From the NCBI GenBank assembly GCA_965237745.1, contig OZ250156.1, positions 3,553,426-3,617,425 on the forward strand: a DNA stretch of 64,000 nt, given 5' to 3'. Shown here in pieces: positions 1 to 55,032 of the stretch (position 1 is the first letter of the stretch; each line of letters starts with the position of its first letter). The translations under genes were made by a program, and so were the position numbers. The DNA comes from Dehalococcoidia bacterium. Lineage in GTDB: Bacteria > Chloroflexota > Dehalococcoidia > Lucifugimonadales > UBA3495. Below the pieces are notes generated by a model. The model ran no database searches and had not been told where the DNA came from. It worked only from the letters and a program-made list of their open reading frames with translations.

Positions 1-1
1 A

Positions 2-1432
2 AAGTTGCCCTGGCCTGCCTCTGGCTTCGATATAGTAGTCGGCAACCCCCCCTGGACCGAGATTACGGAAAACGAAAAGACCCGACCCGAGGAGTGGGCC
101 AAGCAGCTTGGACGCGTGATTGGAGGCCGAAACCCCTCGCAGCTGTTCCTGTGGAGAGCCTTGGATTTACTGAAAGATGGGGGTACAGCCGCTCTCCTGG
201 TCGGCGCAAAAGCAATGCTCAACACAACCAAAACCGCCCGCCTTTTCCGCGAACAATGGCTTCAAGAAGTGAGACTTGACCACGTGGTCAACTTCAGTAA
301 TGTCAGGAAGGACTTTTTCGCGAGCGGCGTTGCACCTTTCATGTTGGTTCGATTCCGTCGTGGCGATCGCCTATCCAATGAGATGGTGGTCTATGAAACC
401 GCTCGACCGGTAACTCCTGGAAGACGTGGCTCCGCGGCATTAGCACGGCTGGACCGCCAAGTGGTGCCGCAGGCGTCCTTGCTTGCTCGGCACTATCTAT
501 GGAAAACATACAGCGCGGGCTCTCTCCGAGATGATGCTCTAGTGGCGAGGCTAGAGGTCGAAGACCGGTTGAGCCAATATATCTCAGGTAGCCCACAGGG
601 TTTTGGGTTTCAACGACCACATGGACAACAACAAGGTCATGCTACCCCGCAAAGTATGGACGGTCTCCCCATTCTCTCGAAGTTCGATTCGTGGGGACCT
701 CTCAGGCAAGAATGGTACGAACCCGCCCCGTCGCGGGTGAAGTATCTTCCTGACGAGCGGTTCTTTAGGGGACAAAGGTTGCTGGTACGGTGGGGCGTCT
801 CTCCCAAGTTCGGGCCACATGCGAGATTGGAGACCAACCCCGTCGCCTTCCGACACACAACCTATTCAATATCCTTGGATCACTTGTCTTCGTGGGAAGG
901 TAAGGTCATCCTAGCAACACTGTTGTCGTCCTTGGGCCGCTACTGGCTGTACATGGTCTCCGGCTCCTGGGGTACATGGCGAGACCAAGTCCGCATGAAC
1001 GACGTTCTTAATCTGCCTGTCAGACTTAGTCCTCCCTCTGACGACTTGATAGGGCGGATAGAACAGGCCGTGGACGACCTTTATAACATGACTCCGCAGA
1101 GGAAGAGGGGTCTTGCCTGCACAGTCCCCCCTGAGATGAAAGGGATCGACGAAGGCATAGCGGACCTGTTTGAACTGACTGATGCAGAGCGGAGTCTTGT
1201 CGCAGACTTCTGGGCAGCCCTAGAGCCGGACGCGACTTTGCCATTACCGGTCGTCGACATCGTGGGAGGTAATGAGGCCGACCTAAGTACCAGCAGCCCA
1301 GACGGCATCTGGCCGTATTTGAGGGTGTTAGTAAGGGCTTGGAATCGAAGATTAAGGGAAAGGGGGCAATTTAGTTGGAGGGTATATCGGTACGCTCCTA
1401 GTATTACAACGACAGTTGGTTCCGAGAGGTAG
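2..1432 (+). CDS. N6-adenine DNA methyltransferase, C-terminal part (5' end outside window); type IIG/Eco57I- or BREX PglX-like
   Basis: Reading frame is open from the window edge. Catalytic motif IV FDIVVGNPPW lies near the start, followed by about 450 aa of target-recognition-like sequence. The last codons run into the inverted-repeat element at 1397. Confidence 0.7.
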   Translation, partial: KLPWPASGFDIVVGNPPWTEITENEKTRPEEWAKQLGRVIGGRNPSQLFLWRALDLLKDGGTAALLVGAKAMLNTTKTARLFREQWLQEVRLDHVVNFSNVRKDFFASGVAPFMLVRFRRGDRLSNEMVVYETARPVTPGRRGSAALARLDRQVVPQASLLARHYLWKTYSAGSLRDDALVARLEVEDRLSQYISGSPQGFGFQRPHGQQQGHATPQSMDGLPILSKFDSWGPLRQEWYEPAPSRVKYLPDERFFRGQRLLVRWGVSPKFGPHARLETNPVAFRHTTYSISLDHLSSWEGKVILATLLSSLGRYWLYMVSGSWGTWRDQVRMNDVLNLPVRLSPPSDDLIGRIEQAVDDLYNMTPQRKRGLACTVPPEMKGIDEGIADLFELTDAERSLVADFWAALEPDATLPLPVVDIVGGNEADLSTSSPDGIWPYLRVLVRAWNRRLRERGQFSWRVYRYAPSITTTVGSER

Positions 1433-1551
1433 CTGATGTGCGGATTTTGAGGCTGGCACTACGCGGGCGCGAGCCTCTGACAAGAAAGGCCTCATAGCTG
1501 GAAGACTAACCCCCGGCCCGGGTTTACTCAATATGTCGTTGTAATACTAGG
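1397..1551. repeat. Inverted-repeat-bounded element, copy 1 (18-bp perfect arms CCTAGTATTACAACGACA / TGTCGTTGTAATACTAGG)
   Basis: Arms at 1397-1414 and 1534-1551 are exact reverse complements. Core GTATTACAACGAC to GTCGTTGTAATAC spans 1401-1547, which is 147 bp. The same core pair occurs again at 53581-53727. Confidence 0.9.
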
Positions 1552-1603
1552 GGAGTTGACTGCTTGTCAACTCCCTTGCAGCCCTTCCGTGAAAGGGCAA
1601 GTC

Positions 1604-2590
1604 CTAGTTGGGGGTTACGGCGAGGGAGCGGATTTCTCCGAACTCCTTCTGGAGCTTGCTCCACGTGTCGCCACCGTCTTCGCTGACGTAGACGTAGCCG
1701 AAGAGGCTGGCAGCGGCCACTACGTTGGGCATTTCGGGGTTGTTGGCGAGCCAGTAGACTACGGAGTTGGGCTCGACGGGGAGGTTGGCCTTGTCCCAGC
1801 TCTGGCCGCCGTCGCGGCTTACCTGGACCGCGCCGGTGACGCCGGGGATGAAGTCGCCGTTGCCGACGAACATGGTGTTGGGGTCGTCGGCCTTGATGAC
1901 CATGCCGCGGCAATAGGAGCGGGCGTCGGCCTCACTGAACTTGGGGAAGTAGTGGTAGTCCCAGCTCTCGCCCTCGTCGCCGCTGGTGGCGATGCCGAAG
2001 GGGCTGGTGCAGAAGAAGGCCGGGTTGTCGCCGCCGCGCAGGGCCATGCCGTGGATGTCGCCATGGAAGGGGTCGGGGCCTAGATCGGGAAGGTGGACCC
2101 AGTTGTCGCCGCCGTCCAGGCTCTTGTAGACGCCGTCAACCTCTATGCCGGCCCAGACCGTGCGGCTGTCGCGGGGGTCGACGATGATGTTGGTGGTGCG
2201 CGGCGTGCCGATGGGGCATTCCATGTTGACGCCCATATCCAGCTTCTGCCACGACTTGCCGCCGTCGCGAGAGCGGAAGCCCTCGGGCCGGGTGCCGGCG
2301 AAGATGGTGTCGGAGTTGCTCGGGTCGACGGCCACCGACCACACCTGCAGGTCGCCGAAGGGGGTGTCGACGGCCTCCCACGAGAGACCGTTGTCCTCGG
2401 TGCGGAACAGGCCCAGACCATCGGAGCCGGCCAGAACGCGGTGCGGGTTGTCGGGGTAGGTGCGCAGGGCGCGGATGTTGCCTTCGGTGGGAATGGGGTT
2501 ACGAATCTTGGTCCAGGTATCGCCGCTGTCGGAACTGATGTTCAGTCCCTGCCCAACGGTGCCTACGAAGATGGAGTAGTTTCCAGACAT
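1604..2590 (-). CDS. BNR/Asp-box repeat beta-propeller protein (sialidase-like / Ycf48-like fold)
   Basis: Seven SxDxGxTW-type Asp-boxes (SSDSGDTW, TEDNGLSW, SRDGGKSW, SLDGGDNW, SGDEGESW, SRDGGQSW, SEDGGDTW). I prefer the ATG at 2590 because GGAGGC lies just upstream of it; the track ORF starts at 2605. Confidence 0.85.
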   Translation of the reverse strand: MSGNYSIFVGTVGQGLNISSDSGDTWTKIRNPIPTEGNIRALRTYPDNPHRVLAGSDGLGLFRTEDNGLSWEAVDTPFGDLQVWSVAVDPSNSDTIFAGTRPEGFRSRDGGKSWQKLDMGVNMECPIGTPRTTNIIVDPRDSRTVWAGIEVDGVYKSLDGGDNWVHLPDLGPDPFHGDIHGMALRGGDNPAFFCTSPFGIATSGDEGESWDYHYFPKFSEADARSYCRGMVIKADDPNTMFVGNGDFIPGVTGAVQVSRDGGQSWDKANLPVEPNSVVYWLANNPEMPNVVAAASLFGYVYVSEDGGDTWSKLQKEFGEIRSLAVTPN

Positions 2591-2762
2591 TTTCGTGCCT
2601 CCCAAAGCGCATTTCGGACTCTGCTTGGGTCTGCCGCTATGATAGCCGCGCGGCAGGGAAAATTCCAGCGGAAGGCGTCAGAGAACGTTTTCGTCAAGTT
2701 GACACTCCGCCGCAGCCCCTTCAAAATGAAGAAACAGGGACCAAGGAAACGGGAGGTTTACA

Positions 2763-3332
2763 ATGACGACCACAGCTTACACAGTTGATGAATTCATCGA
2801 CGACGTTCGCGAGATTTTTGACGCGACGCAGGACCCGCTGGCCCAGGCCAAGGGCGTGTCCGAGAAGATGGAAGTGCTGCTGCAGACCCCAGGCTGGCTG
2901 GAGGAGCGGCTGGAGTTGCCGGACGAGGGCGGGTACGGGCGATACGACCTGCACCTGGACGAGGACTACGGGCATCCGGGCGGCGGTTTCTGGCTGATGG
3001 CCTCGGTTCAGAAACCCGACCAAGACAACCTGCCCCACGACCACGGCGCGGCCTGGGTGGTCTACGGCGTGTACGATGGCGCGATCAAGCAGACCAAGTT
3101 CCGGTGGTACTACCCGGGCGAGGGTGTGGACTCGGTGCAGATCAAGGAGACCGGCGATTTCGTGCAGAAGGACGGCAAGGTGGCCTTCTTCCTGCCGGGC
3201 GAAATCCACAACACGCTGAACGTCACGGGCGACCGGGCGCTGGTGGTGCGGCTGGAGTCGCAGAAGCTGGACCGGGTGATCCGCTACCAGTACAACCCGG
3301 AGGAAGGGACGGTCAGGGTGATGGAGCAGTAG
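2763..3332 (+). CDS. Cupin-fold protein (cysteine-dioxygenase-like metal site)
   Basis: 189-aa ORF with a His-rich cupin-like segment (LPHDHGAAWVVYGV ... GEIHNT). GGAG-type RBS upstream, coding-like composition, followed by a hairpin terminator. Confidence 0.6.
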   Translation: MTTTAYTVDEFIDDVREIFDATQDPLAQAKGVSEKMEVLLQTPGWLEERLELPDEGGYGRYDLHLDEDYGHPGGGFWLMASVQKPDQDNLPHDHGAAWVVYGVYDGAIKQTKFRWYYPGEGVDSVQIKETGDFVQKDGKVAFFLPGEIHNTLNVTGDRALVVRLESQKLDRVIRYQYNPEEGTVRVMEQ

Positions 3333-3378
3333 GTTCTGCACACGCCCGGCCGTTCGCGGCCAACACGGTTAGACGCGG

Positions 3379-3413
3379 AGACGCCCCTCGCGATTGCGGG
3401 GGGCGTTTCTTTC
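3379..3413. terminator. Intrinsic terminator-like hairpin between convergent genes
   Basis: Stem ACGCCCC (3381-3387) pairs with GGGGCGT (3400-3406), 10-12 nt loop, followed by TTTCTTTC. It marks the switch from GC-rich to AT-richer DNA. Confidence 0.6.
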
Positions 3414-3456
3414 GTGGGTGGTTAGAACACTTTTCCAAGGACCCAAAAATAAGGTG

Positions 3457-3927
3457 CTACTCACTTTTTCGGCATAGCTCTTTATTGCCAAGCAATCGTT
3501 TATGTCCCTTCGTAAATTCCTTGTCCGCATTTGTCGAGAAAATTTTACCTCGTGGATTGTCAATCAGCGTTTTACTCTTAAAGTCTCGATGCAATTTCAT
3601 ATCATTTGAATAAAGTAATCTAGCACCACTAACCTGTGCCAAAGCAATTACATGTGGGTCATCTGATCGGCACATTCCAACTTCCTTTAATTGCTGAGTT
3701 AACGAGATAACAGAATCCTGATTTTCTGTTCTTAATCTCCCTGCCAATCGGGCAGCTTGGGACCATTGCTTAAAATCGGATAGTTTTTGGAGCTCTTCAA
3801 GCAGCCTTCCGCCTACCACTAGCCGACCTTGTCCTCTATTTATCCATTCGAGAAACTTTGCACCGGCCGAACCCTGGTCAGAACTAAACACCTCACTAGC
3901 AGTATTTGCGTCTATAATGGCGCACAT
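3457..3927 (-). CDS. PIN-like (DUF4411-like) putative nuclease, second gene of the low-GC ATPase module
   Basis: N-terminal MCAIIDAN (PIN-type first acidic residue). Central CRSDDPHVIALAQVSGARLLYSND resembles the ADPWLIA-type motif of DUF4411/PIN-like domains. Overlaps the upstream ATPase gene by 16 nt. Confidence 0.55.
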   Translation of the reverse strand: MCAIIDANTASEVFSSDQGSAGAKFLEWINRGQGRLVVGGRLLEELQKLSDFKQWSQAARLAGRLRTENQDSVISLTQQLKEVGMCRSDDPHVIALAQVSGARLLYSNDMKLHRDFKSKTLIDNPRGKIFSTNADKEFTKGHKRLLGNKELCRKSE

Positions 3928-5288
3928 TTCTTAGTCGTTGGGCTGCCGATAATTTTTCCACACCTGGAGGTCTCCTCCATGAAAAAACTGCGATAACCGT
4001 CGGGCGCTCCCAACACGTTTCCTTCTTCGTCAATTTCGAGGGAATGGATCTTGACGTCTAGATCGTTACGTTCAAAAAAGAGGATGGAGACATCGGATGG
4101 CTTCAATCCAGCAACACCGTCACGTACATCCATACGCACTCTATCAAGCAAATGGTCACTGTGGGTTTCGACTACAAGCTGACGCTCCGGACCGGCGATT
4201 TGGCACAACAGGCTTCCTAGAGCGGCCTGGGCACTTGGATGAAGGTGAACCTCCGGTTGTTGGAGCAAGCTCATCGGAGATACATCATCTCGCAGTAACT
4301 CAGTTACTATAGGCAAGACTTGGCTAACGCCGTATCCCACATCGATTAGGTTTCGGGGAGGGCCTTTTCGCTTTCCGCTAAATTTTCTAACCTGCACTTG
4401 AAAAGGTTCGCTATCTCTCTTGCCCAACCGTTTGATTGATATTTCGTCAAATAGGCCGGAACTTTTTCCGTATGTTTCAAGCAGACACTTAAGAGTTTCC
4501 CACTGTGCCTCGTCCTGTGCAACTAGATTAGCTAGATACATTGGGACATAGTCCCCTTCAGGATCAGGAGTGGGGCGGGATGGGTCGTACGTACGTTTGG
4601 GCTTTGAACGCACCGGGGCTCCGGCAAATACCTTTGTCTCGCGATGGAAATGTTCAAACCCGGTGGCAGAAAGAGTCCTGATATTACTCAAGTCGTCTGG
4701 ACCCAAGTCTGGCGAGCCCTCTAGAGGTTCAATAAGAATATCCTCGTCCTCCCGCAACTTGCCTGAAAGCAGCCTTGCAGCCAAGACCGGAGCCCACATC
4801 TTTTCATCATAAGCGTCGAACCAGACTACAGATTCAGCAGGGACAATTCCTTTCCATGTCCCATTGCGAGTCCCTACTTGGATAAGAAAGGGACTACCTG
4901 TCGAATAAAGTTCCTCTATCCAAATATCTTCGAAAGCGCGGTACCTTCGAATCGGAATCGGCGCGGTCCCGCTCTTCTTGAAGGTGACTTCATAGCGATA
5001 TGGGCGAATGCGGGAACCCTTCTTGATATCAAGGCAAAACCCCGCCTCAAAGGAATCCGTTCGGCGATCCCGATAGTGGACAATTTCGTCAAAGCTCCCC
5101 AAATCATATGGGGCCTCTTTGAAATCCGGCAGTTTAATGGAAAATGCGACATCCCATAGGGCTTTCAATAAGGCTAAGAATGAAGTTTTACCTGTGCTAT
5201 TCTCACCCACAAGAAGTGTCAGCGGAGCTAACCTAGCGCTTTGTTTATCATGAAAACAACGAAAATCTTTGAGGGTTATTTCGTTCAT
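3912..5288 (-). CDS. ABC/SMC-type AAA ATPase (AAA_15/AAA_21-like with DUF3696-like C-terminus)
   Basis: Walker A LLVGENSTGKTSFL. Walker B/D-loop LLQQPEVHLHPSAQ. H-loop VVETHSDHLLDRV. Clearly AT-richer than the flanking DNA. Confidence 0.8.
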   Translation of the reverse strand: MNEITLKDFRCFHDKQSARLAPLTLLVGENSTGKTSFLALLKALWDVAFSIKLPDFKEAPYDLGSFDEIVHYRDRRTDSFEAGFCLDIKKGSRIRPYRYEVTFKKSGTAPIPIRRYRAFEDIWIEELYSTGSPFLIQVGTRNGTWKGIVPAESVVWFDAYDEKMWAPVLAARLLSGKLREDEDILIEPLEGSPDLGPDDLSNIRTLSATGFEHFHRETKVFAGAPVRSKPKRTYDPSRPTPDPEGDYVPMYLANLVAQDEAQWETLKCLLETYGKSSGLFDEISIKRLGKRDSEPFQVQVRKFSGKRKGPPRNLIDVGYGVSQVLPIVTELLRDDVSPMSLLQQPEVHLHPSAQAALGSLLCQIAGPERQLVVETHSDHLLDRVRMDVRDGVAGLKPSDVSILFFERNDLDVKIHSLEIDEEGNVLGAPDGYRSFFMEETSRCGKIIGSPTTKKCAPL

Positions 5289-5300
5289 GGCCGCCTTCTG

Positions 5301-5329
5301 TATATGGAACTAAGATGCCAATCTGTCAA
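5301..5329 (-). promoter_or_regulatory. Possible sigma70-like promoter for the ATPase/PIN module
   Basis: On the minus strand, TTGACA (5329-5324), a 17-nt spacer, then CATATA (5306-5301), followed by AAGGCGG and the ATG at 5288. Pattern match only. Confidence 0.25.
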
Positions 5330-5392
5330 TTCTACAATATACAATGCTAGGATCCCCGTCTGAACAGGAGCGCCGGGACTAGGACGATGGTA

Positions 5393-5638
5393 TCAAGAAC
5401 CAGGCGCAATTGGCCCGCCACCTCTTCGTGCCCAGGCAACAGCGTCGGCCAAGTCTGCCTCCGTTATTCCCATTTCTGCCAGCTTGTCCCGAACCGCCTC
5501 GATTGACGTTCTGCGCACTGAGGTTAGGACGAGGCAACCGTCCCGCTCCTCTATATCAAGGTACTCGACGCCGTGGAGGGCCAGGGCCACCTCGTCGGGG
5601 ATGGTTATCTGGTTTGGCCCGGTCATTTTTGCCCGCAT
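5393..5638 (-). CDS. AbrB/SpoVT (MazE/VapB-like) antitoxin-type DNA-binding protein, no cognate toxin adjacent
   Basis: ITIPDEVALAL looped-hinge-helix-type motif in an 81-aa protein. High-GC composition, unlike the downstream ATPase island. Confidence 0.6.
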   Translation of the reverse strand: MRAKMTGPNQITIPDEVALALHGVEYLDIEERDGCLVLTSVRRTSIEAVRDKLAEMGITEADLADAVAWARRGGGPIAPGS

Positions 5639-5675
5639 TTTGCGACTACCTCGTGGCGAATGCTTCGAGTATATC

Positions 5676-7406
5676 TCAGTCTGCGGCGAGTTGGGCGCGG
5701 AGGGATTCGGTGGCTGGGAGGTCGAGGTTGCCGTCTTCGCCCAGGACTACGCCGTATTCGGCCTTTGCGTAGGCGGGGGTTAGTTTTTGTTGCTGGACGT
5801 CTTCGAGGACGGCTTGGGGGTCTCGGTTTAGGGGGTTGCCGTAGCCTCCGGCTCCGGCCTGGATTACTTGGTAGAGGTCGCCTTTTTTCAGGGTCATTAG
5901 ATGCTTTCCTGGGAGGTTTTGCTCTTCGGGGGTGCCTGGGTTGAGGGTGTTCTGGGTGGGGGTGCCGTCCTTGCCGCCCTCTACTCCCCAGGGGCGGAAG
6001 TTGGTGCGGTCGGAGCGGAGCTGGAAGGTGGCCTCCTCGGCGAGGAGACGGAATTCGCGGACTATGCCGAGGCCGCCGCGGAATTCGCCAGCGCCGCCGG
6101 TGTCGGGGACGAGGCCGAAACGCTCGACGAGCAGGGGCTGGTCGGACTCGATGCTCTCGATGGGGGTGTTGGCCATGTTCAGCACCGGGGAGGCGAGGCC
6201 GTCGGCGCCGTCGATGCTGGGGCCGCCTCCACGGGGGCCGTCGTTATTGAACTCGAGATAGACCCAGGCCTTGCGGTTGGGGTGATAGCCGCCGAAGCTC
6301 AGGCCGATCTCACCGCCGCCCCAGGCAGCGGGGACCCGACCCGGGAGGGCCTGGGCCATGGCTCCGAACATGGCCTGGCAGATGCGGAAGCCGGCGAGGC
6401 CGCGGGCCGCGACGGGGGCCGGATGCTGCGGATTGACGAAACAGCCCTCGGGCGCGGTGATATTGAAGGGGCGGAAAAAGCCGCTGTTGGACTGGATGGC
6501 GGGGTCGATGAGGCACTTCATCACGGCATAGACGTTGGACTTGGTGTAGGCGAAGTTGGGGTTGATGCTGCCCTTGGCCTGGGGGGAAGTGCCGTCGAAA
6601 TCGACGAAGACCTCATCGCCGTCGATCTTGACGTTGACGTGGATGTCGATGGACTGGGGATCGATGCCGTCGTTGTCGATATGATCGACGAAGTTCCACT
6701 CGCCCTGGGGCAGGGACGAAAACTCGGCGCGGGTCAGAGCCTCGGTAGTGTCCAAGATGTCGGCCATGTAGCTCTTCATCTCTTCCAGGCCGTAGTCGTC
6801 AACCAAGCGCAGCAGGTCGCGCTCACCGAAGCGGACGGCGGCCAGCAGGGCCTGGACGTCGCCAAGGACCTTCTCGGGAACCCGTACGTTCTTTTCCAAG
6901 ATGCGCCAGACTGCTTTGTTGAGCTCGCCTTCGGCGTAGAGCTTGAGGGGCGGGAGGATCAGGCCCTCCTGGTAGATCTCGGTGTTGTCGCAGGCGTTGC
7001 CGCCGGCCACGCGGCCGCCGATGTCGGTCTGGTGTCCGATGCAGCAACTCCAGCCCATGAGGACTTCGTTCACGAAGATGGGCTTGAACAGGAATATGTC
7101 GGGCAGGTGGCTGGCGCCCTCGTAGGGGTCGTTGTTGGCGAAGATATCGCCGGGGAGGACGTCGTCGCCGAAGGCGTTCATCACGCCCTCGAGCGCGGGG
7201 GCCATGCTGCCGAGGTGGGGCGGCAGAGTGAGGCCCTGGGCGACCTGCTGGCCCTCGGCGTTGAACAGGGCGGTGGAGAAGTCCATGCCGTGCTTGATGA
7301 CCGCCGAGCGAGCAGTGCGGACCACGGTGAGGGCCATGGTGTCGGCGGCGCTCATCAGGGCGTTCTTGATGATCTCGCGAGTTACGGGATCGGTGGTCTG
7401 CAGCAT
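5676..7406 (-). CDS. hyuB: Hydantoinase B / 5-oxoprolinase family subunit
   Basis: Full-length similarity pattern to HyuB (DPVTREIIKNALMSAADTMALTVVRTA ..., GGYGNP). The ATG at 7406 is preceded by GAGGAG; the track ORF extends to 7466. Confidence 0.9.
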   Translation of the reverse strand: MLQTTDPVTREIIKNALMSAADTMALTVVRTARSAVIKHGMDFSTALFNAEGQQVAQGLTLPPHLGSMAPALEGVMNAFGDDVLPGDIFANNDPYEGASHLPDIFLFKPIFVNEVLMGWSCCIGHQTDIGGRVAGGNACDNTEIYQEGLILPPLKLYAEGELNKAVWRILEKNVRVPEKVLGDVQALLAAVRFGERDLLRLVDDYGLEEMKSYMADILDTTEALTRAEFSSLPQGEWNFVDHIDNDGIDPQSIDIHVNVKIDGDEVFVDFDGTSPQAKGSINPNFAYTKSNVYAVMKCLIDPAIQSNSGFFRPFNITAPEGCFVNPQHPAPVAARGLAGFRICQAMFGAMAQALPGRVPAAWGGGEIGLSFGGYHPNRKAWVYLEFNNDGPRGGGPSIDGADGLASPVLNMANTPIESIESDQPLLVERFGLVPDTGGAGEFRGGLGIVREFRLLAEEATFQLRSDRTNFRPWGVEGGKDGTPTQNTLNPGTPEEQNLPGKHLMTLKKGDLYQVIQAGAGGYGNPLNRDPQAVLEDVQQQKLTPAYAKAEYGVVLGEDGNLDLPATESLRAQLAAD

Positions 7407-50660: not shown

Positions 50661-51888
50661 AACTAAAGCCAAGGTGAAATGCGCAGAAGCATGGGGTAAA
50701 TTGGTGGTGAACTTGGATGGCTTGTCTTGGATTCAGGTAGGGGTTGGCGATGGGCGTGAGAGATATAGGCCTGATTCTTCGACAGTGGGAGATGGACGCC
50801 AGGGGATTGCACCGGCGGCTCATTCTGGCTCCGACGCCCCGGGAGCGGGAGCGTTGGCACGCCCTCTGGCTCTTGGCCCAAGGCTGGACTGCGGCAGCCA
50901 CGGCCGAGGCTCTGGGACGGGACCCGCACACCATTGGCCGGTGGGCCTCCGCCTTCGGAGAGGGCGGACCGGAGGCCTTGATGTTCGAGCAGACCGGGGG
51001 TTCCCCCCCGCCCTCGGCGAGGGGCAGAAGGCGGAGTTGAAGACCGCGGTACAGGAGCCGCCTGCCATGTCTGGCATCGAACTGGCCAACTGGAACTGGA
51101 AGGCGGTGCGGCGATTTGTTGCCGACTGGTTCGGCGTCAGGCTATGCCGCAGCAGTTCTCTGAACTACCTGCACCGGTTGGGATTTGCTTTCAAGCGGCC
51201 CAAGAAACGTCTGCTCAAGGCGAATGAGGCCAAGCGCGAGGCGTTCGTGGCGGAGTACGCCGCCCTGTGGGAGGAGGCGAAGCGGTCCGGAGGCAAGATA
51301 TTCTTTGCCGACGAGGCCCACTTCCGTGCTGACGCCGAACTGCGGGGCAAGTGGGTTCTGAGGGGAGAACCGGCGTTGGTGGACTCGACCAGCCCGCGGT
51401 ATGGCGAGAAGGCCAGCTACTACTCGGCGGTGTGCTTGGAGACCGGGGAGGTGGAGTGGATGGAACTGGAGGGTAACAGCAACGCCGGGACATCGTCGGC
51501 CTTCCTGCGGCAACTTGCGGAGAGGCACGCCGGGCAATTGAACGTGATCTGGGACAACGCGCCGGCGCACCGTGGCGAGGCTGTGCGTGAGTATCTGCGG
51601 ACGCCTGGGCTGCGGCTGGTGAACCTGCCGGGCTACAGCCCGGACTTCAACGCGGATGAGGCCATCTGGGGCTGAGCGAGGGAAGAGGCGACAGGTAACC
51701 TGTGCCTCGGAACCAGTGCCAAGGTGCAGGAGAGGGTCGGCAGCTTCCTCGCCGGGCTGGCCAGCCGGAAGGATGAAGTGAAACGGCGTTGCCGGACAGT
51801 CCTGCAATCAAAGGCCGAGACCCTCTGGCGAGACATCCAGGCCCCTTCCCAGCCCACGGCAAATGCACATCCCACCTTGGCTTTGGTT
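50661..51888 (+). mobile_element. IS630-family insertion sequence flanked by TA duplications
   Basis: Terminal inverted repeats AACTAAAGCCAAGGTG (50661-) and CACCTTGGCTTTGGTT (-51888). TA at 50659-50660 and at 51889-51890. Confidence 0.9.
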
Positions 51889-51891
51889 TAG
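50744..51891 (+). pseudogene. IS630-family DDE transposase (frame change at a C7 run plus an in-frame TGA)
   Basis: The HTH part (to ...FEQTGGSPP) continues in the -1 frame after CCCCCCC at 51003-51009 (ALGEGQKAELK...). DDE region FFADEAHF...WDNAPAHRG...NPDFNADEAIWG, then TGA 51673-51675 where related transposases as I recall them have Trp. The frame then stays open to a TAG at 51889-51891 that uses the flanking TA. Confidence 0.85.
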
Positions 51892-51981
51892 GAGGAAATG
51901 TCTCACTTGGGGCGTCCTTTCTCCGCTGGGGTCAGGCGTCCATTCTACCTGCTGCCTGTCCCTTTCCTCTCGCCCAGGGTG

Positions 51982-53476: not shown

Positions 53477-53578
53477 GCTCCTTATGGGTTGGCGCTGATG
53501 TTACTCTGGACCTGTCGGGTTGGTCTGTAGGGAGGTGTCAGTGGGGCGTTCTTCCCATCTCATTGATTTGCAGAGTAC

Positions 53579-53729
53579 TTGTATTACAACGACAGTTTGC
53601 GGAAAAGGCCGGCTGGCGCTGCGTGTCTGACTCCGAGCCAGGTACTGTGGGAGGGTTGCCGCAGGTGGCCGCTAAATTCAATTCCACCTCAAGAATCACG
53701 CCGTTGGATTAACCGTCGTTGTAATACTA
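53579..53729. repeat. Inverted-repeat-bounded element, copy 2
   Basis: GTATTACAACGAC at 53581-53593 and GTCGTTGTAATAC at 53715-53727. Core-to-core length is 147 bp, identical to copy 1, while the interior is essentially unrelated. Confidence 0.9.
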
Positions 53730-53811
53730 AGCCACAGTCCGGGCTGAACCCCATTTTGCCGGCTGCACAAGGGCGGGCAACAGTCGAAAAGCCCGCACCG
53801 TTGAGGTCGTC

Positions 53812-54273
53812 CTACAGACGCTCCAGTAACTTTGCAATCTGATCGGTGTGGTTCATGTCGGGTTCCCACTCGCAGATCACACTGTGTTCGTCGATGACAA
53901 CTGCGGGCCTTTTCCCGTCTGACGGGTCTTTGACGTACCTCTCTCCATCGAGAGTGGACATGCCTAGCTCAATGCCTACTCGTCGATCAGGGTCGTTCAG
54001 GACCGCGAACGGAAGCTGCTCTTTCTCGACCCACTGGCGTGCAGCATCCAAGCTTCCGTCATGGATTCCGAACAGCACGACGTTCTTCTCGGTGAACTCG
54101 GCAGCATGCTCTCGGTACCCAAGAGCCATGCGGGTTCAGTTACCACCGCCCGGACTCGTGAAGAAGTACAGCAGGACCTTTTGTCCGCGAAGACTGCTAA
54201 GGGATATCGTCTGTCCATCGCTGGACTGAAGTGTGAAATCGGAAATCGTCTTCCCGATGTAAGTTTCCATCAT
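53812..54273 (-). CDS. BCP-type peroxiredoxin (AhpC/TSA family) with in-frame UGA at the peroxidatic-Cys position; candidate selenoprotein
   Basis: The 45-codon 5' piece (MMETYIGKT...VLLYFFTSPGGGN) and track ORF 53812-54129 share one frame and are separated by TGA (54138-54136). The UGA aligns with Cys of the E. coli Bcp motif [12 protein letters not shown]. Confidence 0.75.
54104..54131 (-). promoter_or_regulatory. SECIS-like hairpin immediately 3' of the in-frame UGA
   Basis: mRNA GCAUG-G-CUCU UGGGUACCG AGAG CAUGC. The stem has 9 bp plus up to 3 further pairs, one bulged G, and an apical GU 18-19 nt after the UGA. Confidence 0.45.
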
Positions 54274-54388
54274 TGCCGTCCTTTCCGGTGAGACTTAATA
54301 GAACCGACGCACGCATGGCAGAACCGTTCCCCATGCAGTTGCTGGGCTGCACGGAGTCTAGGCGTTTCTCACCGCCGATGCACGCCTA

Positions 54389-54675
54389 AACCAAAGCCAA
54401 GGTGAAATGCGCAGAAACATAGGGTAAATTGAAGGAGGGACAGGGTTAGCTTTTGCGAGTGTCCGAGAGGGGTTGGTGATGGGTGTGCGGGAGATGGAGC
54501 GATTCCTCCAACAGTGGCAGATGGATGCCAGGGATTTGCGCCGGCGGATGATTTGGTCGCCGACGTCCCGGGAGCGGGAACGGTGGTACGCCCTGCTGCT
54601 GCTGGCCCAAGGATGGCCGGGTTCGGCGGTGGCCGGGGCACTGGAAAGGGACCCACACACCATTGGCCGATGGGG
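54389..54675 (+). mobile_element. Truncated IS630-family copy (left end + HTH-coding part only)
   Basis: TA then AACCAAAGCCAAGGTGAAATGCGCAGAA (nearly identical to 50661-). It encodes MGVREMERFLQQWQMDARDLRRR...HTIGRW, and similarity stops abruptly near 54675. Confidence 0.85.
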
Positions 54676-55032
54676 GTCAACCATACGGAGAGACAACTTT
54701 TTAGCTACTCGTTCACGCTCCCAGCCGATTGCTGATGAACTTGACAGGGTTGTTACGCTGAACAGGCCAGAACTGCGAAGCGCACAAGAACTGCGAGTCC
54801 AAGCGCAGCGCAGCGAATGCTGGTTCAGCAACCAACGAGGCCTTGGCGTTGCCGGGCCTTTTCTTTTGGGAATTATATCGGATTCTACCTACAGACCGGT
54901 TCCGCTCGTTTCCGCAGAACATGTAGCTCACCGCCAGACGGAGGAGGCTTACCCAGACGGCAAGATGTTTGACGCCTTGCCGTAATCGAGGTCTGTCCTT
55001 TGACCACCAACTGCGAAAGCAAACGGAACCGT

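Follow-up and report, generated by a model that had tools for sequence, protein, structure and literature searches.

Correia elements of Neisseria are abundant MITEs (miniature transposable elements with inverted repeats) of ~100–160 bp; they have TA-containing target duplications, fall into discrete length classes and often alter neighbouring genes. Type II MITEs resemble the parent insertion sequence (IS) in nothing but their terminal repeats, and two described MITE families, Chunjie (178–235 bp) and QMITE (39–400 bp), vary broadly in size (PMC10969869). Members of the IS701 family are reported to make 4–5-bp direct repeats, in the statement that PMC8024623 takes from Siguier 2015. For IS50, the ‘helical-twist’ work of Goryshin et al. 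(1994), in the account given in PMC3464196, found transposition to be periodic with end spacing at short spacings, and the sizes of Paramecium internal eliminated sequences (IESs) have a 10.2-bp periodicity (PMC3464196). Here these systems are compared with two units bounded by inverted repeats in a 64,000-nucleotide stretch of the genome of a Dehalococcoidia bacterium (contig OZ250156.1, positions 3,553,426–3,617,425; ‘the window’ refers to the whole of this stretch). We conclude, with a probability of about 0.92, that both units are copies of a non-autonomous MITE which shares its ends with an IS701-family insertion sequence. As a kind of element it is ordinary, an IS701-associated type II MITE family of Dehalococcoidia; its one unusual property is its length classes. 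The family is previously undescribed, and a literature search on MITEs in Dehalococcoidia found no paper.

Structure of the two units

The window has the 13-nt core GTATTACAACGAC at exactly four places, 1401–1413 (+), 1535–1547 (−), 53581–53593 (+) and 53715–53727 (−), and the four sites form two inverted pairs which each span 147 bp from the first core base to the last. No further site was present in the window at up to two mismatches (0.39 expected by chance), and none of 100 shuffles reached four. The original prediction, made from the sequence of the window, had drawn attention to these pairs and their equal spans, and to an 18-nt perfect inverted repeat at copy 1 (CCTAGTATTACAACGACA, 1397–1414 and 1534–1551), all of which were reproduced. 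The element proper is 145 bp long and runs from TATTACAACGAC to GTCGTTGTAATA (Table 1), since the outer G and C of the 13-nt core are part of a 4-bp flank, CTAG. As a palindrome, CTAG extends the inverted repeat that is seen (18 bp in copy 1) beyond the real terminal repeat. The flanks read CTA/G..C/TAG at copy 1 and CTT/G..C/TAA at copy 2, and both ends carry TATTACAACGAC(R), without a mismatch in any of the four window arms. The terminal inverted repeats, of 12–17 bp, are the same as those of the ~1.46-kb IS701-family elements described below. When the two copies were aligned directly in both orientations the arms matched and the interiors did not, in agreement with the description of the interiors as unrelated.

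Copy number, hosts and target duplication

One of the checks proposed with the original prediction was a pattern search across genomes. A scan for GTATTACAACGAC-N(106–136)-GTCGTTGTAATAC in one genome per bacterial or archaeal species matched at least 107 stretches. Among the matches listed, all were in metagenome-assembled genomes (MAGs) of Dehalococcoidia (or SAR202), from ~40 isolates, and a single isolate held at least 16 stretches, the window itself having only two copies. The loci fetched for closer comparison, which are designated here by L and a number, contained 116 paired copies, 100 of them unique. With the arms relaxed to TATTACAACGAC (at most one mismatch), CTAG/CTAG flanks were found at 99 of 123 copies in these loci. 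Copies are found in either orientation, some within genes, some in intergenic DNA and some within other repeats. A megablast search of PLSDB with window positions 1–6000 gave no match.

Occupied and unoccupied versions of the same site were also found. Besides the site of copy 1, which is treated below, there is a second, paralogous one: in L046 two units of another repeat are joined at a CTAG that holds a MITE, and L090 has this junction without one. At 145 bp and without transposase coding, the units are within the usual size range of MITEs (about 50–500 bp), and they combine terminal inverted repeats, target duplications with empty sites, dispersed copies and ends common to an autonomous element. 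The original prediction had held that many copies, target duplications and empty sites would make the unit an ordinary MITE, and all three were found.

An autonomous partner of the IS701 family

Eight elements of 1419–1463 bp (~1.46 kb) bounded by the same ends are present in the fetched loci, and each encodes a protein of ~420 aa. The open reading frame (ORF) of the element in L060 scores 366.8 bits on the NCBIfam model NF033540 ‘IS701 family transposase’ (cut-off 150) and matches Pfam PF13546 (DDE_5) at 3e-60 with 204.5 bits; the transposases of the other IS copies are 70–91% identical at the protein level. Full-length copies have CTAG/CTAG or CTAA/CTAA flanks, in keeping with the 4–5-bp direct repeats reported for the family. 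The CTAA/CTAA flanks belong to a full-length IS in L100, and they show that the duplication is of 4 bp and not of TA. The IS701 family has a YTAR target consensus, and the Dehalococcoidia MITE/IS family has a strict preference for CTAG.

An intact copy of 1457 bp, with CTAG on both sides and a 420-aa transposase encoded on the minus strand at 1536–2798, occupies positions 1412–2868 of L117, ~900 bp upstream of the position that matches the start of the window; another IS copy, with a variant end, follows ~9 kb downstream in L117/L118. These two loci are from another assembly (ENA ERZ25766727, contig ctg357341_91x_c, 132,637 bp). No homologue of the IS701 transposase was found in the window by tblastn. 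In the proposed mechanism, the DDE transposase encoded by the IS would bind both ends of the MITE and pair them, and would then excise or copy the element and integrate it into CTAG (YTAR-like) sites, duplicating the 4 bp.

Interiors and subfamilies

Similarity between MITE and IS is limited to ~17–19 bp at each end, as judged from eight IS copies. Derivation of the interiors from the IS by deletion was considered and rejected, as blastn of all interiors against the eight IS copies gave one 21-nt match at chance level. Because the interiors share nothing with the IS beyond the ends, the elements are type II MITEs. The interiors form nine BLAST clusters with 54, 24, 5, 5, 5, 2, 2, 1 and 1 members. 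Copy 1 groups with L004:4927–5073 (73% identity over 96 nt), and copy 2 falls into cluster 1 as a diverged member, with z=9.4 when compared with the consensus of subfamily 1. The remaining clusters are mutually unrelated (z<4, gappy alignments); a weak signal of deep homology between subfamilies 2 and 7 and between 3 and 6 dissolved into gappy alignments and was discarded. The interiors of the two window copies are unrelated because the copies belong to different subfamilies. In the original prediction no known feature class was thought to explain conserved ends together with unrelated interiors; type II MITEs do so once the two copies are assigned to different subfamilies.

Length classes

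Lengths were sampled from 132 to 162 bp in genome contigs and from 102 to 131 bp in metagenome contigs. The genome contigs gave copies of 147 bp (66 copies), 146 bp (27), 137 bp (7) and 138 bp (7), with eight more at 143–149 bp; within the scanned range, none had a length of 139–142 or 150–162 bp. The metagenome contigs added one new family of 127/128 bp (six copies) and two identical copies of 116 bp, and the interiors of these two families are unrelated to all others. In the fetched loci, a search from 60 to 400 bp found only one outlier, of 193 bp. The original prediction had singled out the conserved length, and it is indeed unusual: across subfamilies, the sampled lengths fall into classes of 116, 127/128, 137/138 and 146/147 bp. 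The class means (116, 127.5, 137.4 and 146.8 bp) fit a line with a slope of 10.2 bp and residuals below 0.7 bp, and the highest value in a periodogram over 5–20 bp is at 10.1 bp (R=0.94). This R is attained by random lengths in 1 of 20,000 trials if ten families are treated as independent, and with a frequency of 0.047 if only the four classes are counted. Subfamily 0 contains one clear length variant, in which the loss of 9 bp in a single deletion has shortened the element from 147 bp to 138 bp. Three scans of viral contigs for other length ranges came back empty; they are uninformative on length, because they were empty for the main range as well.

To the wider proposition, that MITE lengths are quantised in helical-turn steps across ~10 subfamilies with unrelated interiors, we would give odds that are even or a shade below. 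On DNA shorter than the persistence length, both ends would have to face the same side of the helix in order to be paired, and such a helical-phase constraint on end pairing, to which we give about even odds, would allow only lengths ~10.2 bp apart to persist. To our knowledge, no such length periodicity has been reported for bacterial MITEs. If it holds, the family would amount to a natural ‘helical-twist experiment’, in which an IS701-type transposase pairs only in-phase ends on DNA of sub-persistence length, and in which new interiors have repeatedly been fitted into a length grid. It would also provide in vivo evidence of the way in which an IS701/IS4-type transposase brings closely spaced ends together.

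Truncation of a methyltransferase gene by copy 1

Copy 1 is an insertion in the 3′ part of a methyltransferase gene, where ~105 C-terminal residues have been replaced by 11 MITE codons and a stop. The left arm lies within the last 12 codons of the ORF with the NPPW motif (5–1432, with the tail ..YRYAPSITTTVGSER before the stop), as had been predicted; the C-terminus is accordingly in part encoded by the repeat, its last 11 codons and the stop being read from MITE sequence. The window protein is identical to a database protein, P0001 (731 aa), which ends 11 codons into the MITE, and homologues run ~105 well-conserved residues past ‘…FSWRVWRD’ at the insertion point.

Empty sites in relatives had also been proposed as a check, and L108 supplies one for copy 1, as L090 does for the site in L046. 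L108 is the contig of the homologue P0006 and is ~90% identical at the nucleotide level; it aligns with window positions 3–1400 and stops at the edge of the MITE. The empty site reads CCCCTAC/TGGCG in L108 versus CTCCTAG/TATTAC in the window. In L117, the MITE is followed by CTAG/TGGCG… and the rest of the methyltransferase gene. L117 2869–5164 matches L108 2449–4745 and L117 5311–6252 matches L108 4743–5684, which amounts to a clean insertion of 146 bp that repeats the target tetranucleotide; the two alignments overlap by its CTA. L117 and L118 carry identical copies of MITE copy 1. The window methyltransferase is a MITE-truncated allele of a restriction-modification-type enzyme, and is likely to be inactive or altered.

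Alternative explanations

An IS630 partner was first considered because of the TA flanks and an HTH_23 fragment in the window; in this reading the units would be TA-targeting MITEs mobilised by an IS630/Tc1-mariner-type transposase. TA is found directly outside the core in three of the four window arms, IS630 transposase genes are nearby (50674–51675, with DDE_3 and HTH_33, and the HTH_23 fragment at 54473–54680), and L060 725–1864 matches NF033545. However, the same ends enclose IS701-family transposase genes, the full-length elements encode IS701 transposases, and no IS630 copy bounded by these ends was seen. The repeated flank is of 4 bp (CTAG at 99 of 123 copies, CTAA/CTAA in L100) rather than a 2-bp TA, and the overlap between L117 and L108 is the CTA of a tetranucleotide. 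Mobilisation by an IS630-type enzyme is therefore very unlikely, and the original proposal of a TA-targeting MITE stands in part: the unit is a MITE, with many copies, duplications and empty sites, but its target is a 4-bp sequence, CTAG and sometimes CTAA, that has TA at its centre.

Two proposals would make the unit functional in itself, as a member of a structured non-coding RNA gene family or as a pair of operator sites for a DNA-looping regulator. Both could draw on the fixed spacing between the ends and on the folding of 1400–1548 (z=−3.5/−3.3), which is driven by the long terminal stem. The + strand of copy 2, however, folds no better than shuffled sequence (z=−0.95), and copies occur in genes, in intergenic DNA and in other repeats in both orientations. 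Folding and an Rfam search had been among the proposed checks; Rfam (15) gave no match at the gathering threshold in the whole window, nor at E≤10 in 1200–1800, and the consensus of the 54-member subfamily folds into a terminal stem without conserved interior helices. In the 24-member subfamily the consensus includes some short helices, whose significance is doubtful, and a tRNA/tmRNA scan of the DNA found nothing. We consider an RNA gene or paired operators, the latter suggested in the original prediction, even less probable than an IS630 partner.

Readings based on site-specific recombination have the lowest standing of all. A perfect inverted repeat around a short segment could be an inverton or a pair of recombinase sites around the 119-bp segment, as had also been suggested, and resolvase-family genes do occur in the related contigs L109 and L118. 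Against this are the dispersal of more than 100 copies, their target duplications and an empty site, interiors which are unrelated between subfamilies and have no common promoter-like module, and flanks in which no recombinase or invertase gene adjoins either window copy; the copy number, duplications and empty sites leave this suggestion with next to no probability. Integron attC-like sites of the CALIN type are equally improbable. They would account for an imperfect palindrome of 116–147 bp with a variable centre, for the position of copy 1 at the 3′ end of an ORF and for arms containing ..ACAAC/GTTGT... Yet the arms (..TTACAAC/GTTGTAA..) do not fit RYYYAAC/GTTRRRY and pair beyond the end of the attC core, the elements have target duplications and ends in common with an IS, there are no cassette arrays, and no integron integrase gene was found beside either window copy when neighbouring ORFs were scanned against Pfam.

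The IS701-associated MITE and its length classes have points of their own to contend with. The flanks of copy 2 are unequal (CTTG versus CTAA). The empty site in L108 is a single CTAC, not CTAG, and since L108 is ~10% diverged, it gives no direct view of the target that the window lineage had ancestrally. Mobilisation in trans is a step that we infer from the shared ends and from insertion polymorphism. Copies were ascertained by their exact 13-nt arms, and the large collections were sampled for lengths from 102 to 162 bp. Families of equal length may share ancestry, in which case the length classes would be partly inherited rather than independently selected. Another CTAG-flanked family, with ends AAGTCTGGCCGGAA, measures 169–171 bp between the CTAGs; because its ends differ, it neither supports nor contradicts the phasing.

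Breakpoints at both copies

Each of the window copies coincides exactly with a point at which related contigs cease to be similar. Window positions 1–1550 are 100% identical to L117 3765–5314, with no identity beyond; the match stops with the outermost base of the right-hand CTAG of copy 1, which is thus a rearrangement or assembly breakpoint. From 1551, the place of the methyltransferase tail is taken in the window by a hairpin and a convergent BNR/sortilin-like gene. A search of the whole window found neither this tail nor the downstream gene of L108, L109 and L117. The hairpin, which has a perfect 10-bp stem, directly follows the right CTAG, between the truncated methyltransferase gene and the convergent BNR gene; there is no T-run after it, and it is absent at the equivalent position of L117.

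The contig name of L117/L118 ends in ‘_c’, with 91x coverage, and it may have been assembled as a circle. It also carries genes for IS21 IstB, a resolvase, a second DDE_Tnp_1 transposase and a RecD-like helicase. The window may come from a chromosome which shares the L117 segment only up to the MITE.

The right flank of copy 2 (53727–54388) matches L017 4026–4687 at 99.2% identity and L045 at 95%, both of them MAGs of other species; in each, the CTAA follows unrelated sequence without a MITE. This 662-bp segment contains an AhpC/TSA-like gene on the minus strand, in which 53812–54271 has stops when read in one frame, and the gene appears to be frameshifted. Because the identity ends abruptly at both sides, the segment is suggestive of a recent transfer or a mobile cassette. 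MITE–MITE recombination or a transposase-mediated rearrangement may have caused the breakpoints; at copy 1, an assembly join is the alternative. The two copies can be flagged accordingly, as marking a change of gene order or a possible mis-join.

Other features of the window and related loci

The coordinates of the two copies and of neighbouring features are given in Table 1. Other CTAG-flanked MITE families exist in the same genomes (L090 6080–6430; L046 5000–5250), with 11 copies across genome loci. A family with ends TGTnCTGTATTCGTAGTTCG forms tandem arrays in which a single CTAG is common to adjacent units. The TATTACAACGAC MITEs often abut other CTAG families (AAGTCTG begins 14 of 245 flanks); since CTAG targets are restored by every insertion, elements pile up. 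Over the whole window, CTAG occurs 58 times in 64 kb, compared with ~230 by a rough estimate from base composition.

Copy 2 is within a 2.5-kb segment between two IS630-type pieces, namely a transposase gene and, 2.7 kb away, a separate N-terminal fragment. Window positions 51501–51892 and 54386–54609 are ~80% identical to a repeat of ~1.2 kb found in L004, L030, L038 and L068, and in L030 and L038 the piece resembling 54386 abuts a MITE. Downstream of copy 1, an ATPase gene and a small upstream ORF without a Pfam match lie in a patch of low G+C content (0.50–0.52 versus about 0.62), which looks like a defence-type island beside the truncated restriction-modification methyltransferase.

Table 1. 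Positions of the MITE copies and neighbouring features in the window
Feature	Position	Strand	Remarks
3′ part of Eco57I/MmeI-type N6-adenine methyltransferase gene (NPPW motif), MITE-truncated	2..1432	+	Pfam PF07669, PF02384
Left target-site duplication CTAG, copy 1	1398..1401		CTAG/CTAG flanks in family
MITE copy 1, 145 bp, terminal inverted repeats TATTACAACGACA at 1402–1414 and 1534–1546	1402..1546		Subfamily of L004:4927–5073
Right target-site duplication CTAG, copy 1	1547..1550		L117 identity stops here
Hairpin GGGAGTTGAC-TGCTT-GTCAACTCCC	1551..1575		
AAA_21/AAA_15 ATPase gene, DUF3696 C-terminus (458 aa), with small upstream ORF	3457..5288	−	
IS630-family transposase gene	50674..51675	+	
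4-bp flanks of copy 2, unequal	53578..53581 (CTTG); 53727..53730 (CTAA)		
MITE copy 2, 145 bp, diverged subfamily 1 member	53582..53726		z=9.4 vs subfamily 1 consensus
N-terminal HTH_23 fragment, IS630 type	54386..54680	+	

Comparison with known systems

For annotation, an odd palindromic unit is resolved as a mobile element. With its many subfamilies, its insertion at CTAG and its abundance in uncultured Dehalococcoidia, the MITE family could mark genome plasticity in these organisms.

The closest described counterparts agree with it to different degrees. Correia elements owe their length classes to an internal deletion of ~50 bp in a single family of homologous elements, and not to ~10-bp steps across unrelated interiors. 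Chunjie and QMITE have broad size ranges, in contrast to the many subfamilies with unrelated interiors and tightly quantised lengths of the Dehalococcoidia family. With the IS701 family, the partner elements have in common a transposase matching NF033540 and PF13546, a length of ~1.42–1.46 kb and 4-bp direct repeats; the window units differ in that they lack a transposase gene and share only the ~17–19 bp at each end. Like type II MITEs, the window units belong to a multi-copy family of small (50–500 bp) non-coding elements, which end in inverted repeats, are flanked by direct target duplications, resemble their parent IS in the terminal repeats alone, and can insert into and truncate genes (PMC10969869).

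With regard to length, the resemblance is to IS50 and the Paramecium IESs, where short DNA between transposon ends is tolerated only at lengths ~10 bp apart. The period fitted to the Dehalococcoidia MITEs is 10.1–10.2 bp, compared with 10.2 bp in the IESs. In contrast to those two systems, the Dehalococcoidia MITEs are natural bacterial subfamilies in four sampled classes (116–147 bp), for which the comparison is based on a census of lengths.

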